Notes under the pieces: model-generated
Databases searched by the model: none
Told to the model about the DNA's origin: nothing
The model's input: only the letters and a program-made list of their open reading frames with translations
Program-made: the position numbers and the translations under genes
Shown: positions 49,897 to 63,455 of the stretch, piece after piece
Numbering within the stretch: position 1 is the stretch's first letter
How the letters are laid out: every line of letters begins with the position of its first letter
Source of the DNA: a virus
Taxonomy: Duplodnaviria; Caudoviricetes
Length of the DNA stretch: 64,000 nucleotides
IMG/VR virus record: IMGVR_UViG_3300022677_000027
Coordinates: 32,001 to 96,000 of that record
Direction: 5' to 3' (one strand)

Positions 49897-50325
49897 TGCA
49901 AAAACCACCAAAGCCCCCCCCCCAAGGGGAGGCACAGGGGAAAGCAAAGTGAAACACGCACACAACCCTCTTGCTCTGGTAGAGGCTCAGCAGCAGGAAG
50001 TCCTCAGAACTCTCACAGACCTCCACATCGGCTTTTGCACAATAACCATCACAACAACACAAAAAGAAAAGCAATAGTCAGAGAACCCTCACAGATACGA
50101 ATGGGCCAACCCTAAAGCAGAACGTCCATACGAGAGAAAAAGGCACCCCCCCCCTGCCGCTCAGACTGGACAAAATACGGCTAGGTGCTCTTGGTATAAA
50201 AGAGCACTGGCCCCGTTGGGTAGCTCTCGCCTAAGAAACCCGTCTAATTTAATCCTACATGTATATCTCTCCAGAAATTCCCTCTAATTTTACCCCGTAG
50301 TTTTTTGTAGATGGGGCAAACCCAT

Positions 50326-50376
50326 CAGATACCTTACCCAGATACCTTACCCAGATACCTTACCCAGATACCTTAC
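50326..50376. repeat. Tandem repeat, 13 bp x 4 (CAGATACCTTACC)
   Basis: Read directly from the sequence; the last copy lacks its final base. Confidence 0.95.
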
Positions 50377-50401
50377 TAGTTTTTTGTGATCTCACCTTAT
50401 C

Positions 50402-50461
50402 AAAAAATCTTAAAAACTTACCTCTGAATCAAAAAAATCTTAAAAACTTACCTCTGAATCA
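50402..50461. repeat. Tandem repeat, 30 bp x 2 (AAAAAATCTTAAAAACTTACCTCTGAATCA)
   Basis: Read directly from the sequence. Confidence 0.95.
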
Positions 50462-50595
50462 AAAGGGGGGCTAAGGTATATATAACAAACAATGTGCCAA
50501 AACAAAGGGGGGTACGGTATGGGGGCACAAACAGCAAGTACGGTATGTTTGTGCATTGCAATTAACCTAAAAACAACAAAGGAGGTGGTGGCAGC

Positions 50596-50673
50596 ATGGC
50601 CTTAATACAGGGTATTGCAACAGCCCTTATTGTTGCAACCGTTTGGTTTGTTTACCTTGCAACCCGCAAATAA
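50596..50673 (+). CDS. 25-aa single-pass membrane peptide (MALIQGIATALIVATVWFVYLATRK)
   Basis: AAAGGAGGTG SD, which keeps one of the few GA dinucleotides in the block. Hydrophobic helix. Confidence 0.65.
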   Translation: MALIQGIATALIVATVWFVYLATRK

Positions 50674-50699
50674 CCCTTAACCAAAAAGGCAGGTGCATT

Positions 50700-51314
50700 A
50701 TGCAAAAAACAAGTAAGGGGGCCGTGGCCCTAAGTATGCGATTACGCGGTAACAACGCCCATGTGCTTAAACACATTAGCCAATACTTTGCCAATGTACC
50801 AAAAGTGCGTGGCCTTAATACATATGCAGGTATGTATAGCCGCACCACCACCAACTTACAAGCCGTATTGCCACAACTTAAAGCCCTGTATAAGGCCACA
50901 GGCAAACCAGTGTACATTGTTGGCACCATAAGCACCGCAAGGGTAAATGGCAAGGCGGTAAAGCTGCCTACCGCAAGGCACGCCTTTAACCGTAGGCCAT
51001 TTGCCCTGGTGCAAAAAGCGCTATTAGCCATTGGCGTTAACGCCATTAACCCTGCTTGCCTAAAGGCATTTGCTAGGGCAATACACGGCAAATACACGCC
51101 TGGCACCAATGGCCCTGCAATGTTTAATGCAGTGGCAAGCAAAAGCGGGGCTAAATTTACAGTTAAGCGCCTACAGCGCACTAACAAGCGTAGCGTAAGG
51201 GGGTGTTGCGCTATTGTTGTTGTTAACCCAATGCGTAGTTTTACAAGCCTGGGTGTACAACAGGAATTAGCACACGCCATAAAGTTTAACCCTGTGCCCA
51301 TTTACAGGGTATAA
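50700..51314 (+). CDS. 204-aa basic protein with no Asp and a single Glu
   Basis: AAGGCAGGTG SD before ATG 50700. C-terminal IVVVNP...QELAHAI. Confidence 0.75.
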   Translation: MQKTSKGAVALSMRLRGNNAHVLKHISQYFANVPKVRGLNTYAGMYSRTTTNLQAVLPQLKALYKATGKPVYIVGTISTARVNGKAVKLPTARHAFNRRPFALVQKALLAIGVNAINPACLKAFARAIHGKYTPGTNGPAMFNAVASKSGAKFTVKRLQRTNKRSVRGCCAIVVVNPMRSFTSLGVQQELAHAIKFNPVPIYRV

Positions 51315-51374
51315 CAGGGGGCAACCCTGTGTGCGGTTAACCCTAACCGCCCCAATGGGGCAAGGAGGTGCGGC

Positions 51375-51965
51375 ATGCAAACACGAAGCGCACTATTCGC
51401 CAACCAGCTAGCAGTGCTTAGTCCGGCATATCGCCGGTTTACGGAACACTGCCTGCAATGTGCCCCGGAATACGTGTTTACCAACTGTCCTAGTAGCAGC
51501 AGTGGCAAATATCACCCAGTTGACGAACTGGGTCCCGATGGCACAGTGAAACACACACGCAAAGTCTTTGCCGTTGCCAATGCACTGGTGACAGCTATGG
51601 GCTTGCAGCACTACAGAGATGTAATCCTCACTGCCGCATTGGTGCATGATCTGTGCAAACAGGGCATCACTCGTATGGGTCGTACGGTAAGTAATCATCC
51701 TGCGCTGGCCGCGTACCTCGTTAACTTTGTTGCTGGCCATTACAGTGGCCTCATTCCTACCCGTTGCGCACGCCTTATTGCCCATTGTGTAGGGTATCAC
51801 TATGGAGCATGGGGAACAGGCAACTATGCCATTGACCATCTGGCAGACGTGGCCCCTGCTAACAAGCTTGCTCACCTTCGGGCATCTGACCTCAGCGCTC
51901 CTGCTCTTGTCGTGTTTGCAGCCGACTACATCGCTTCTCGCAGGTACGTTAACATTCTAACCTAG
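51375..51965 (+). CDS. HD-domain phosphohydrolase
   Basis: PSSSSGKYHP, KHT, AALVHDLCKQG, NHP, HYGAW and AADYIASR. Confidence 0.9.
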   Translation: MQTRSALFANQLAVLSPAYRRFTEHCLQCAPEYVFTNCPSSSSGKYHPVDELGPDGTVKHTRKVFAVANALVTAMGLQHYRDVILTAALVHDLCKQGITRMGRTVSNHPALAAYLVNFVAGHYSGLIPTRCARLIAHCVGYHYGAWGTGNYAIDHLADVAPANKLAHLRASDLSAPALVVFAADYIASRRYVNILT

Positions 51966-52026
51966 CTGCCCTTGGTTGTTTCATATATAGGCGTTAACCC
52001 ATAACACCAGGAAGGAGGTGGTGAGC

Positions 52027-52269
52027 ATGGACTGGACGTGGCTGATAACCGCAGCCACAACTGTGGGGGTCATTTTGAATGCACGCCAGCGTATAGAGTG
52101 TTTCTATATATGGCTAGTGACCAATGCAGCTTGGTTTGTGGTTGACATGAAGGCTGGCCTCTATGGTCAGGCTGCGATGTTTGCTCTGTACTTCTTCATT
52201 ACCATTTATGCCATAGTCACGTGGAAGCGCAAAGCTAAGGAAGCGGCCAATGGTCAACTTGCCTCATAA
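52027..52269 (+). CDS. PnuC-like small membrane protein
   Basis: Three TM helices: GVILNA...CFYIWLVTN...GLYGQA...W. Confidence 0.7.
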   Translation: MDWTWLITAATTVGVILNARQRIECFYIWLVTNAAWFVVDMKAGLYGQAAMFALYFFITIYAIVTWKRKAKEAANGQLAS

Positions 52270-52296
52270 CCAACTTCGCAGGAAGGAGGTGATACC

Positions 52297-52419
52297 ATGA
52301 TTACAATACTAGAACCATTGCTGTTCGACCCATTCTTGGGAACCATCGTCGGCCTTGCAATAGCTATTGCTTGTATTGGCTATGTGTTTAATGGCAATGA
52401 CGATGACGGAGAAAGCTAA
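52297..52419 (+). CDS. 40-aa membrane peptide
   Basis: AAGGAGGTGAT SD. MITILEPLLFDPFLGTIVGLAIAIACIGYVF... Confidence 0.6.
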   Translation: MITILEPLLFDPFLGTIVGLAIAIACIGYVFNGNDDDGES

Positions 52420-60801: not shown

Positions 60802-60837
60802 TCATACACGTCATACACGTCATACACGTCATACACG
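60802..60837. repeat. Tandem repeat, 9 bp x 4 (TCATACACG)
   Basis: Read directly from the sequence. Confidence 0.95.
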
Positions 60838-60920
60838 AACATAGCAGTTGAAGCCGATTCACACGATGTGGTGTGTCTTTATCGGATGTTCATTTGCTTC
60901 GCATTGCCCATACCTATATC

Positions 60921-61060
60921 ACATATATCATGCAAAAATTAGTCCCGTGGCACAAAAAAAAAGACTCCTACATATATCATGCAAAAATTAGTCCCGTGGC
61001 ACAAAAAAAAGACTCCTACATATATCATGCAAAAATTAGTCCCGTGGCACAAAAAAAAGA
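60921..61060. repeat. Tandem repeat, ~48 bp x 3 (ACATATATCATGCAAAAATTAGTCCCGTGGCACAAAAAAAAGACTCCT)
   Basis: Read directly from the sequence. The third copy is truncated. Confidence 0.95.
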
Positions 61061-61112: not shown

Positions 61113-61238
61113 AAGACTAGCAAAAATGGCAATGGACTATTGGACCTAAATAAGCTACGCAAGGAGGTGACACCATAGGTGGCTGGCAAGGTTGACCATG
61201 CTACATCAAAAACCCTAATAACGCAAAGGAGGCAGCCA

Positions 61239-61757
61239 ATGCGACCAAAGGAAATGGACAACGACTTTGTGAAGCGAGCTGAAGCATTCAGAAAAATGCT
61301 AAGCAAGCCAAAAGTGACCAAGGCTGGTGACTTCACGGTCGGCGTGACCAAGACCGGATGCATCCAGGTCAGGCGGAAAGGCGAGGTCATTATAGCTCTC
61401 ACGAGACATGCTGGCAAGGTCGTGCTCCCACCCTCGGACATCAAGGAACTTGCCCCTCACGCCACAGCTCCTGGTGACAACAAACACATGAGCTGGGTTC
61501 CTTGGAATGAGATGAGTGAAGACCTCATCATCCGGCGACTGAGGGACAAGCGGTCTAATGCTCAGGTGATGGAGGACGTCTATGGGAAAGGGAAAATGTC
61601 CAGCTCTCAAGAGAGATACAGGGAGTTGAAGACTGAAGCAACCAAGGAAACAGAGAAGACCAAGAAAGCCAAAGGAACTCAGAAAAGGACGACTAAGGCC
61701 AAGACAAAGAAAAAAGGAGCACCAAAGGCTCTGAAGGCCAAAGCTGCTCAGGCCTAG
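61239..61757 (+). CDS. Protein with a Lys/Ala-rich tail, paralogue of 55372..56058
   Basis: AAAGGAGG SD. Shares TKTG, DNxHM and DKRxN...DVYGKG with the paralogue. Confidence 0.8.
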   Translation: MRPKEMDNDFVKRAEAFRKMLSKPKVTKAGDFTVGVTKTGCIQVRRKGEVIIALTRHAGKVVLPPSDIKELAPHATAPGDNKHMSWVPWNEMSEDLIIRRLRDKRSNAQVMEDVYGKGKMSSSQERYRELKTEATKETEKTKKAKGTQKRTTKAKTKKKGAPKALKAKAAQA

Positions 61758-61774
61758 AGATGCCCATGACCACC

Positions 61775-61812
61775 AAAAAAGGAACCCGCTTCCACAGGGG
61801 TTTCTTTTTTTT
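61775..61812 (+). terminator. Intrinsic terminator, possibly bidirectional
   Basis: AAAAAAGGAACCC...GGGTTTCTTTTTTTT. Confidence 0.75.
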
Positions 61813-62049
61813 GTCCCAGAGAACACCTTTTTTCCACTCCTGCAGAACAACAAGATGTTCTGTTCAGATCGTTCGAGTGGGGTTGGCACCCTTATGGGTG
61901 TGTAGTGGGGAGGGTGCATTGAGAGACCACAGATACAAGAAGAACAATTCCCTTTGTGATGTTCTCACAGAACGACAGGAGGGCATTCAGAACGCATCAT
62001 GCAGAGAAATCTATGATGCGTTTTCTGAGAGGGTCTCACCCCTCTCGCC

Positions 62050-62223
62050 CCTTATGAGCATTCTGACCCCGACTCTTATGAGCATTTTGACAAAGAAATC
62101 TTCTCCCCTTATAGGCATTTTGACAAAGAATCTGTACAGAATAAGAGAAAAATACACATCACAAGAACGTGATTGTGCATTCGCTTTGCCCTATGGCACA
62201 AGGCGCTCCTATGGCACAAGGCC
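62050..62223. repeat. Short imperfect direct repeats (CTTATGAGCATTYTGAC-like x 3; CCTATGGCACAAGGC x 2)
   Basis: Read directly from the intergenic sequence. Confidence 0.75.
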
Positions 62224-62308
62224 TAACAATACACTGCCTAAGACGCCATAAGATGCTAGGATTGGAAAGAGGTTCTTTTGAAGAGAATAGAATAGAAAGG
62301 AGAATGTG

Positions 62309-62755
62309 ATGAGTGAGAGACTTAAGGATGTTCTGAAGGAAAATGACCTTGTTGACCTGTTTGTCAACAAGATGAGAATGTTCTCTGTGTCTTCCTCCAG
62401 TGGGACGCATGACTCTGTTGACCCAACCCATCTTGAGGAGTGGAAGTGTGAAGTGTGGCTCGAATATGGATATTCCACTGCAGAGTCAGAATTCCTTGAG
62501 GAGGAGGGAGGAGGCGAGTTTCCTGAGTCTGAGACTGTGACTGTCCACATGCTCGACTGCACATGGGGAGTGGAATTTGAGTTGGAGACGTCTGTGGGGA
62601 TCGAGAAGGGATTTTTCGGACGAGAGATGCGTGGAGAAGGAGAATGGCATCGAGTGACTCCGAGATTCTTTGAGATCATGGCTGACCTGCTGCTCAATGG
62701 AGACGCGGAACCTGCTGAGCAAGATGATCGAGAGAACCCGTGTGCTGAGATGTGA
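62309..62755 (+). CDS. Highly acidic hypothetical protein
   Basis: AAAGGAG SD. Glu/Asp-rich. Confidence 0.75.
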   Translation: MSERLKDVLKENDLVDLFVNKMRMFSVSSSSGTHDSVDPTHLEEWKCEVWLEYGYSTAESEFLEEEGGGEFPESETVTVHMLDCTWGVEFELETSVGIEKGFFGREMRGEGEWHRVTPRFFEIMADLLLNGDAEPAEQDDRENPCAEM

Positions 62756-62788
62756 GATTGTGTGCCAGAGAGGAAGGAGGTGAGAAAT

Positions 62789-62887
62789 GTGAAGCTGACA
62801 AAACTTGCCCTGGAATTTGCAGTGGCTCTCGGTGTCTGCATGATCCTGTTTGTTGCATTCGCAAAGGCGATCATGGCTGTCTGGTGA
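62789..62887 (+). CDS. 32-aa membrane peptide
   Basis: AAGGAGGTGA SD, GTG start. MKLTKLALEFAVALGVCMILFVAFAKAIMAVW. Confidence 0.6.
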   Translation: MKLTKLALEFAVALGVCMILFVAFAKAIMAVW

Positions 62888-62904
62888 GAAAGGAGGTGGA
62901 CAAA

Positions 62905-63180
62905 ATGGTTAGAAAGAACCTGTGCATCGTGTTCAAATGTAAGGATCCGGGACCAGTGGTCACCGAGCATCTGCGATATGCGGGGCTCGTGAGCGTGGGA
63001 GACCGAGATAGAGGTGTGAGCATGCCTTATGATGCTGCCAAGGCAATGGGACCCCTGAAAGAAGGAGAGATCATCGTCAAGATGAAGTGTCCTCCAGAAC
63101 AAAGAGCCGAAGTCTGGCAGGAACAAAACCTGGAGAGACTGAGAAGCTTTGGCGTGAAGGCCGAGGCATTTATGTACTAA
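62905..63180 (+). CDS. Hypothetical protein
   Basis: AAAGGAGGTG SD before ATG 62905. Confidence 0.7.
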   Translation: MVRKNLCIVFKCKDPGPVVTEHLRYAGLVSVGDRDRGVSMPYDAAKAMGPLKEGEIIVKMKCPPEQRAEVWQEQNLERLRSFGVKAEAFMY

Positions 63181-63194
63181 GGAGGTGGACAAAT

Positions 63195-63455
63195 ATGAAT
63201 ATGAACAGATATGAAGGAGAAAACGCTAGAGACATCTGCCAAGACGCAATTTTGGTCCAAGACGCCTGCAATTTGTCAGGCGTGGCCCATTCTCTGGCAG
63301 AAATGTGCTCCTTTCTGTGGAAACAGGGCTTGGAAACAGAGGCCATAAAGAAACATCCGGCTGTGATCCTTGTGGTGGACAAGATGAATGATCTGGTGGG
63401 CAGACCAGATTTTGACGCCTATGCAGAAGCATATAAAGCATGTAGAGGGGAATGA
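63195..63455 (+). CDS. Hypothetical phage protein (DAILVQDACNLSGVAHS...HPAV)
   Basis: TAAGGAGGTG SD. Confidence 0.7.
   Translation: MNMNRYEGENARDICQDAILVQDACNLSGVAHSLAEMCSFLWKQGLETEAIKKHPAVILVVDKMNDLVGRPDFDAYAEAYKACRGE

Follow-up and report, generated by a model that had tools for sequence, protein, structure and literature searches.

Why should a stretch of some 0.9 kb in a phage genome, coding and non-coding parts alike, be almost free of the dinucleotides GA and TC? The question is raised by the block at positions 50461–51384 (+) of a 64,000-nucleotide stretch of DNA (the window), which corresponds to bases 32001–96000 of the 140,126-bp virus record IMGVR_UViG_3300022677_000027 in IMG/VR and comes from an uncultured phage. 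The block contains the gene of a 204-amino-acid (aa) protein and had been singled out in a first-pass annotation prepared from the sequence alone. The depletion is genuine and stronger than first described, and it is the property of a gene family rather than of this one genome. As its cause we tentatively propose a message that has been hardened against dinucleotide-specific enzymes acting on single strands.

The 924 bp of the block contain 4 GA (68.5 expected from base composition) and 0 TC (47.1 expected); all dinucleotides other than TC are present. At the window-wide frequency of 0.1196, about 110 GA+TC would be expected (Poisson P(≤4)=7e-42), and in 20,000 shuffles of the block their sum never fell below 78. 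When all strand-symmetric words of 1–4 bases were scanned over the whole genome, the 524-bp GA/TC-free gap within the block was the strongest outlier (log10 of the expected number about −23), and the next three largest GA/TC gaps of the genome adjoin it. On the left the block starts abruptly: the preceding TC, at 50459–60, falls within the second copy of a 30-bp tandem repeat. The TC-free span as such comprises 50461–51396, and TC is back at 51397, inside the adjacent gene of an HD-domain protein. The surviving GA are located in two GGAGG ribosome sites (50582 and 51365), in the sole Glu codon (51264) and in a CGA codon for Arg (50740), and the ribosome site of the main gene reads AAGGCAGGTG. 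The palindromes GGCC, GTAC, TTAA, GCGC and TGCA occur at 2–3.5 times the window average, and GGC is enriched as well.

The recount thus agrees with the first-pass annotation on the number of GA and TC, on the sharp edge directly after tandem repeats, on the main-gene ribosome site with its broken GA and on the abundance of other palindromes; its assignment of two GA to ribosome sites and of one to the Glu codon was also right, though the CGA codon had been omitted. The relaxation through the HD gene that it described holds in part: depletion continues there, but the gene is only mildly low (observed/expected ratio (o/e) 0.74 for TC and 0.53 for GA). The next gene gives 0.68 and 0.73, and the remaining tested genes lie between 0.7 and 1.2 for both words. 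Enrichment of the dinucleotide GC (o/e 1.7–2.2) was considered as a second signal and rejected, being an arithmetic result of banning GA and TC.

Relatives of the 204-aa protein were collected by an exhaustive HMMER search and a word-indexed search. Fourteen were obtained, all metagenomic and 33–76% identical to it; DNA was retrievable for seven, so that eight blocks could be compared, the window included, whereas the protein alignment comprises 15 sequences. All seven relatives are purged of TC on the sense strand: the counts per gene over the eight genes are 0, 0, 0, 0, 0, 0, 1 and 0, the single TC belonging to locus L017. The corresponding GA counts are 2, 22, 1, 7, 1, 1, 1 and 1. In five of the seven relatives the lone GA is the codon of an invariant Glu, to which the window gene adds one more in its CGA codon, and in 13 of the 15 proteins this Glu is accompanied by no other Glu and by no Asp. 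Because the ban has been kept in eight homologous blocks at 33–76% protein identity, it is the product of selection and not of chance or drift. Nor is it an assembly artefact, a doubt that the first-pass annotation had itself raised, since independent assemblies of homologues share the ban; a 3.5-kb contig also keeps the gene order.

The level at which selection acts can be read from codon usage. In six of the genes none of the 56 Ser codons is of the TCN type, as compared with 46 of 87 in the neighbouring genes of the window; TTC was not used for any of 42 Phe or ATC for any of 69 Ile, and CTC (0/105) and GTC (0/104) are missing likewise. The ban extends across codon boundaries, as C does not follow T at any of 370 junctions between a codon ending in T and the next codon. 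It spans the non-coding leader as well as the coding sequence, and ribosome sites within the blocks are GGGGG or GGCAGG in place of GGAGG. The constraint therefore acts on the nucleic acid, independently of reading frame, and overrides codon, ribosome-site and amino-acid preferences.

A sense-strand rule of this kind might in principle serve to escape Rho: an early, poorly translated transcript lacking YC words would avoid premature termination, and Rho avoidance does shape coding-strand composition in Bacillota (PMC13323073). The composition of the blocks is at odds with this. CC is enriched (o/e 1.19, 1.23, 0.93, 1.29, 1.72 and 1.71 in the six genes, hence at least 1.19 in five of them), C and G are about equally frequent in the block (220 and 226), and a ban on GA lowers the number of purine words, which is the opposite of a purine bias. 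We consider Rho avoidance highly improbable.

The edges of the blocks show what is protected. Block lengths are 0.82–0.99 kb with the exception of L017 (1.72 kb), whose block also holds a 90-aa open reading frame (ORF) and an acid-free ORF of 245 aa. The blocks start at, or close to, a conserved left boundary and end 46–83 nt past the stop codon of the family gene, at or just inside the start of the next gene. Upstream of the family gene the ban reaches more than 1.1 kb in L017, as against less than 85 nt downstream in all blocks. The window contains the following elements in this region:

~50185–50212: terminator-like hairpin, seen by eye.
50326–50376 (+): tandem repeat upstream of the block, 3.9 copies of a 13-bp unit (TRF, 100% matches; not repeated elsewhere in the genome).
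50402–50464 (+): tandem repeat, 2.1 copies of a 30-bp unit, with the last GA/TC words (in a −35-like CTGAAT region); it ends where the ban begins.
50464–50486 (+): left-boundary motif, a G-run GGGGGGCT followed by a TATAT-type −10-like element; conserved in L005 and L017.
50519–50605 (+): leader mini-ORF of 28 aa (or 37 aa if started at 50492), with a GGGGGG ribosome site.
50596–50673 (+): second mini-ORF of the leader, 25 aa and hydrophobic, preceded by one of the two kept GGAGG sites.
50700–51314 (+): gene of the 204-aa protein, predicted to have a deoxyribosyltransferase/DNPH1/MilB-like fold; no Asp and one Glu (E189, codon 51264–51266).
51375–51965 (+): gene of an HD-domain phosphohydrolase (Pfam HD, E 1.3e-6; phrog_5889, E 1.5e-30).
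52018–52269 (+): gene of an 83-aa membrane protein, mini-PnuC (Pfam NMN_transporter, E 2.6e-8; TIGR01528, E 1.6e-5).

The left boundary has the same order in the window, L005 and L017, namely a GA-containing −35-like stretch, GGGGG(G)CT and TATAT, and L005 shares the layout of the window also in that tandem repeats precede the G-run. Judged by sequence, the motif at 50464–50486 is probably a promoter or the start of a transcription unit; a scan for sigma-70 consensus promoters at the boundary gave nothing canonical. Since the left boundary is conserved, the right edge lies at the end of the gene and the block of L017 takes in extra ORFs, the constrained unit extends from the probable promoter to the end of the family gene and is neither the gene alone nor a fixed length of DNA.

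No family was matched by the 28/37-aa mini-ORF, and a hydrophobic mini-ORF similar to the second one precedes the family gene in L003. An Rfam scan of 50000–52400 returned no RNA family, and hairpins after the stop codon were no better than those of shuffled sequences (z −1.0). The HD protein obtained no PDB or NCBIfam assignment past its HD domain. The mini-PnuC matches only the last third of the nicotinamide-riboside transporter PnuC; similar genes of 71–74 aa adjoin three other family members (P0002, P0005 and P0010), and these proteins of 71–83 aa are possibly half-transporters that work as oligomers. The acid-free 245-aa ORF of L017 (351–1088, +), inside the purged block and next to the family gene, gave weak thymidylate-synthase-like leads. 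These came from BLASTP against the thymidylate-synthase homologue of the window's genome over a Cys motif (PC..QF region, E 0.002) and from Atlas features (0.93); there was no Pfam match and no homologue among 5.8 billion proteins, and its structure prediction is poor (predicted local distance difference test score (pLDDT) 29).

The two bans can be told apart in the relatives that have relaxed. L003 is the closest relative (76% protein identity) and has the same order of family gene, HD gene and mini-PnuC. Its family gene has regained 22 GA, 10 of them in Asp or Glu codons, 8 at codon junctions and 4 in Arg or Gly codons, and TC is still 0 over 865 bp; L005 has 7 GA and 0 TC. The TC and GA bans are consequently separable and strand-specific. 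Such an asymmetry would not arise from an agent that reads the duplex dinucleotide. It could arise from a pair of sense-strand constraints, or from a single agent to which chiefly the sense or displaced strand is exposed.

The same comparison bears on the possibility that the words were lost by mutation without selection, a TC-specific cytosine deaminase having attacked the transcribed region. An excess of TT (o/e 1.39) and AA (1.32) in the block and the limitation of the effect to a transcription unit would be in accord with such erosion. At the GA sites of L003, however, no deamination signature was found: the window has GC (7), AA (6), GG (3), TA (2), CA (2) and GT (1), so that most differences are transversions. 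Further, G+C is higher in the block (48%) than in the genome (43%), 15 lineages have an intact, conserved protein, and ribosome sites have been rebuilt as GGGGG and do not show decay of the AAGG type. On these grounds unselected erosion is hardly credible.

According to the first-pass annotation, the block enters the cell ahead of all other DNA and offers no sites to a GA/TC-directed agent until its product has acted. The logic of a site-free stretch that eludes such an agent is supported, and with it the selection, now found conserved in eight phages; the one-strand relaxation in L003 is not what a duplex reading predicts. Entry of a first-injected leader without sites for a duplex-DNA defence is an established concept, as Autographiviridae escape Type I restriction if their first-injected region lacks the motif (PMC12455610). 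In the present case a repeat array precedes the block, and four contigs of 2.6–7.4 kb start at most ~220 bp from the left edge or inside the block (three judged by DNA, the fourth by gene position). Two of these, the independent assemblies L014 and L015, start at the identical base, and this genome has no second copy of the boundary sequence. The usual block length of 0.8–1.0 kb also resembles the first ~850 bp that phage T7 admits to the cell.

Other observations do not fit entry of the block as a leader. Absence of sites that follows DNA entry on both strands is not what the family shows: the ban ends at a gene boundary in all relatives, the length varies from 0.8 to 1.7 kb, and only one strand is clean in L003 and L005, a relaxation that would be unexpected for a duplex dinucleotide. 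We know of no restriction or other duplex-reading system with dinucleotide specificity, and other palindromes are enriched in the block. Its position does not suggest an end either. It is part of a rightward arm of 35 kb that consists of small genes, and 8.3 kb separate it from the terminase genes and from the strand switch at ~42 kb; the remainder of the genome, with the replication, nucleotide-metabolism and structural genes, is leftward. The 50-bp terminal repeat of the record is an assembly overlap. Like the complete genome, the 37.6-kb contig of L005 runs through the boundary, extending 10 kb upstream of it, and contigs may break for other reasons, such as cassette polymorphism or the use of k=31 unitigs where tandem repeats occur. 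Entry of the block as a first-injected leader is, in our estimate, quite unlikely.

Contig starts at or just inside the left edge were met in different samples and with different assemblers (L014:1, L015:1, L017:1–37 and L003:1). A physical end, cassette polymorphism or a step in coverage are possible causes; dispersed repeats were considered as a cause of the breaks and rejected for this genome, in which the boundary is unrepeated.

Neither the block nor 25 kb of the window led to annotated phage relatives in blastn and megablast searches, and tblastn of the 204-aa protein yielded chance matches only. One of these, in a Nodularia phage, has normal GA and TC and no homology and was dismissed. 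A pattern search of IMG/VR gave no match with the 204-aa protein and one distant locus only with the HD protein. The best match of the terminase is that of Brevibacillus phage Emery (32% identity).

What the protected gene encodes was approached through its fold. The AlphaFold model, calculated from the 15-sequence alignment, reached a pLDDT of 88.9 and a predicted template-modelling (TM) score of 0.86. In an exhaustive VIA structure search the top match was 1t1j (Z 9.5, 114 residues aligned, root-mean-square deviation 3.1), accompanied by six nucleoside 2-deoxyribosyltransferases (Z 6.3–7.5), the cytidine monophosphate (CMP) N-glycosidase MilB (6.8) and TIR domains (about 6); Foldseek alone gave no match below E 0.04. 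Structure matches in the ESM Atlas were phage-rich DUF1937/DUF4406/DUF7768 clusters and DNPH1, with TM scores of 0.45–0.56 by query and 0.55–0.80 by row for the DUF1937/DUF4406 clusters and 0.43/0.57 for DNPH1. One Bacillota cluster carries DUF7768 on 56%, HD on 52% and DUF4406 on 44% of its members, which points to DUF4406–HD fusions, and one viral cluster joins a deoxynucleoside monophosphate (dNMP) kinase with DUF4406. The sequence itself has no Pfam, PHROG or NCBIfam match, neither PF14359 nor PF09152 had a match in the genome at E≤1, and no PDB sequence was matched by the 15-sequence profile. As no sequence profile matches, the relationship to the superfamily is one of fold.

The model identifies the 204-aa protein as having a Rossmann-like fold of the N-(deoxy)ribosyltransferase type, with an extra N-terminal helical region (residues 1–65). 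E189 is invariant in 15 of 15 sequences and the only acidic residue in 13 of them; it belongs to the motif SxG(V/T)xxE(L/I/V), with which the last helix begins, after strand 171–174. This Glu is of a catalytic type and may correspond to the nucleophile of DNPH1. The sequence QELAH was tried as an HExxH metalloprotease motif and discarded, its His not being conserved. We read the protein, on the strength of the model, as a putative N-glycosidase or transferase whose substrate would be a (deoxy)ribosyl compound with a phosphate. No literature on the function of DUF4406 or DUF1937 was found.

Such an activity raises the possibility of self-immunity: the encoded N-glycosidase would attack TC, and with it GA, on single-stranded DNA or RNA, for instance in wrecking host nucleic acid, and its own gene and message would have been kept free of targets. 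The predicted fold is that of enzymes which cleave N-glycosidic bonds by means of a Glu nucleophile, and the family gene is present in every block, though the blocks were found through it. A parallel is T4 endonuclease IV, a phage weapon specific for 5′-TC on single-stranded DNA that contains deoxycytidine, and a DNA containing hydroxymethyl-pyrimidines, which is likely here (see below), could shield the rest of the genome. A modification that shields the genome would shield the DNA of the gene too, however, and an attack on RNA only leaves the GA ban unexplained. With more than 1.1 kb upstream in L017 against less than 85 nt downstream, there is no effect of proximity to the gene. L003 has dropped the GA ban at 76% identity, whereas six others keep it at the price of all acidic residues, which looks like a change of environment and not of the enzyme. 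Known members of the fold, moreover, act on free nucleosides or nucleotides. Taken together, we think self-immunity rather unlikely.

The chemistry of the phage DNA itself has to be considered in this connection. The genome encodes the following proteins, all in leftward orientation:

L012:15652–16824 (−): MilA-like hydroxymethylase.
L011:16157–17413 (−): serine hydroxymethyltransferase (SHMT).
L009:1538–2491 (−): GT9-like protein.
L013:396–1637 (−): second glycosyltransferase-like protein.
L012:8446–9102 (−): YfbR-like protein.
L009:3852–4478 (−): member of the uracil-DNA glycosylase (UDG) superfamily.

A phosphoribosyltransferase, a radical-SAM protein and a PfkB kinase are encoded in addition. 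This gene content suggests that the phage DNA carries a hydroxymethyl-pyrimidine, perhaps in glycosylated form. The ban could then reflect the phage's own DNA modification, with TC and GA steps being marked genome-wide and the unit kept unmarked for earliest expression. In support, the thymidylate-synthase homologue is closest to the CMP 5-hydroxymethylase MilA (E 7.6e-28, as compared with 2.8e-13 for true thymidylate synthases), and it is accompanied by SHMT (E 2e-159), the GT9-like and a second, weak glycosyltransferase, the radical-SAM protein, the PfkB kinase, the UDG-superfamily protein and the YfbR-like 5′-deoxynucleotidase. The weakly thymidylate-synthase-like, acid-free protein inside the purged block of L017 stands beside the family gene, and the ban seems to take in the promoter spacer and the −10 element.

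DNA modification at the level of a dinucleotide reportedly occurs in phage CAjan, in GA contexts, with GGC as the second motif. The first-pass annotation had cited the 7-deazaguanine of CAjan and named a GA-context modification of the phage's own as one option. A modification of the CAjan type has no gene to support it, as neither TGT/DpdA nor QueC was found (PF01702 and PF06508 without a match at E≤0.01, positive in 14 of 14 control genomes; FolE, QueD and QueE were not searched). D12, C5 and N6/N4 methyltransferases were not found in the genome either, and GGC is enriched in the block and not avoided. Hydroxymethyl-pyrimidines made at the nucleotide level enter DNA irrespective of context, and all other genes of the early arm, which also need to be transcribed, have normal TC and GA. 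Finally, the stricter ban, that on TC, concerns the sense or non-template strand, which matters least for the reading of a pyrimidine mark, and only one strand is clean in L003. The phage's own modification is thus a serious but distinctly minority possibility.

We return to the hardened message, to which we would give somewhat less than an even chance. The block would represent one early transcription unit, consisting of a promoter-proximal leader, two mini-ORFs and the gene of the 204-aa enzyme, from which selection would have removed the target words of one or two enzymes that read UC/TC and GA on single strands. We infer that the single-stranded target is in all likelihood the mRNA: as the words are missing from its 5′ end to just past the stop codon, the message would remain translatable while other messages are marked or cut. 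The responsible enzyme could be an abortive-infection enzyme of the host or a shut-off enzyme of the phage itself. The product would probably act, together with the HD phosphohydrolase and the mini-PnuC, on a nucleotide or a nucleotide-like adduct; candidate substrates are canonical pyrimidine nucleotides, NAD-related compounds and ribosyl–base adducts on nucleic acid.

This proposal is preferred because the ban is based on the sense strand and splits into UC and GA, because it covers what lies upstream of and inside the gene and almost nothing downstream, and because ribosome sites are included. An extent shaped like an operon fits the protection of a message, since only upstream or internal lesions or cuts endanger expression of the cistron. 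The ban is, furthermore, not tied to a single gene, as the extra ORFs of L017 show. For the GA half there is a direct precedent in CmdT, a blocker of translation that ADP-ribosylates N6 of adenine where single-stranded mRNA has a GA dinucleotide (PMC11618068), and DarT is an example of a TC-containing target on single-stranded DNA (PMC5179494; PMC12945103).

Several considerations weigh against a hardened message. One and the same sequence is common to the mRNA, to the coding strand when displaced and to the sense strand of the DNA, so that sequence does not distinguish the RNA level from the other two. To our knowledge there is no RNA enzyme specific for UC/TC, yet UC is the stricter ban. If the promoter has been assigned correctly, the ban covers a spacer of ~17 bp and the −10 element in four members, that is, untranscribed DNA. 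CmdT is triggered late in E. coli, by a capsid protein, and is thus not an obvious threat to an early message. The fold and the clusters that combine DUF4406 with HD or with dNMP kinase suggest ordinary nucleotide metabolism, and special protection of this gene is not accounted for by the fold as such. The genes for pyrimidine hydroxymethylation and glycosylation, lastly, would be in keeping with modification by the phage itself.

A more far-reaching version of the hardened message may be stated, speculative and with a minority chance of being right. An undescribed enzyme that marks or cuts at UC would exist, in bacteria or in phages, besides CmdT-like GA enzymes, and would have been answered by a toxin-proof operon, whose product, together with the HD protein and mini-PnuC, would then remove ribosyl–base adducts or the cofactor behind them. 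If this is true, it would be the first counter-defence gene known to owe its own sequence, even its set of amino acids, to the defence that it disarms.

Several features elsewhere in the genome were recorded in passing. A second composition-constrained block was noted at 61200–63400, with 439 bp free of TA (62473–62909; log10 of the expected number about −9). The TA-free stretch sits in a TA-poor, GA-rich region of 2 kb, which follows a repeat array at 60802–61060 (a 9-mer in 4 and a 48-mer in 2.9 copies) and a strong promoter-like TATAAT and encodes a basic protein of 192 aa, an acidic protein of 149 aa and a membrane peptide of 41 aa. The only homologue of the acidic protein (59% identity; L019, 8001–8483) is TA-depleted (7 TA, o/e about 0.3) and not TA-free. 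Just to the left of the window (G000:C1:30100–31300) AT is missing from a stretch of 336 bp and CC/GG from one of 233 bp; both gaps are explained by composition, because the region is a low-complexity repeat of the coiled-coil type, GAGCTAGAGCAGCT-like. The DNA polymerase (1527 aa; L012:9190–13770, −) contains an HNH-endonuclease-like insertion in its N-terminal third, at residues ~240–440.

That a ban on two dinucleotides has been held down to 33% protein identity indicates very strong selection at the nucleotide level on a coding gene, and under it an enzyme has to make do with one acidic residue; the family illustrates how much rewriting a Rossmann-fold enzyme tolerates when Asp and Glu are excluded. 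The ban also implies that infected cells contain a reader of dinucleotides on single-stranded nucleic acid. A reader of GA (CmdT) was found only in 2024, and none is known for UC/TC. A unit of 0.9 kb, with L003 as a natural control in which the GA ban is lifted and the TC ban kept, offers a compact experimental handle, and motif-free tracts could serve to flag counter-defence or first-needed genes of uncultured phages from sequence alone.

Among known systems, CmdTAC is similar in its specificity for GA on single-stranded RNA, the word that has gone from the message and from most ribosome sites here; its authors point out that ribosome-binding sites carry GA (PMC11618068). A message that is GA-free including its ribosome sites, as would resist CmdT, was found in six of the eight blocks, apart from the Glu codon and, in the window, the CGA codon and ribosome sites; L003 and L005 are relaxed. 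CmdT differs in leaving the stricter UC/TC ban, which is outside its known specificity, unexplained, and no CmdT-proof phage gene was found described in the searchable literature. DarT2 of the DarTG system ADP-ribosylates thymidine in TNTC on single-stranded DNA (PMC5179494; summarised in PMC12945103) and resembles the inferred agent in having a TC-containing single-strand target, in serving anti-phage defence and in being reversible by a glycohydrolase. Since its mark can be reversed, protection of the repair gene only would be a coherent strategy. Here, in contrast, every TC is banned and not just TNTC, whose absence is trivial once all TC are absent; the template strand, which would block RNA polymerase, is the less protected one in L003, and the known reversers are macrodomain or NADAR proteins and not of this fold. 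The superfamily of nucleoside deoxyribosyltransferases, DNPH1 (Rcl) and MilB shares the Rossmann-like fold with the 204-aa protein, and HD and dNMP-kinase partners occur among the relatives; the protein differs in its extension of residues 1–65 and in having no acidic residue but the Glu.

Motif-free leading regions of the T7 type are alike in that targets are locally absent where expression must precede counter-defence. They and restriction-site avoidance differ in involving duplex motifs of 4–8 bp, no cost to proteins and a mapped leading end, whereas the present block bans two dinucleotides, rewrites its proteome and is separable by strand. Rho avoidance, too, is a composition rule on the sense strand that shields transcripts from premature loss, but Rho reads YC in C-rich, G-poor RNA, and here CC is enriched, C equals G and GA is banned. 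Messages without ACA escape MazF by missing its short recognition word, and they resemble the present one in dodging a sequence-specific RNA toxin; there, words of 3–7 nt are concerned and their absence is engineered or statistical, whereas here two dinucleotides are banned in a natural phage family. Set against these systems, the block is a case of target-motif avoidance that pairs TC with GA, leaves CC enriched and is found on a defined enzyme family.

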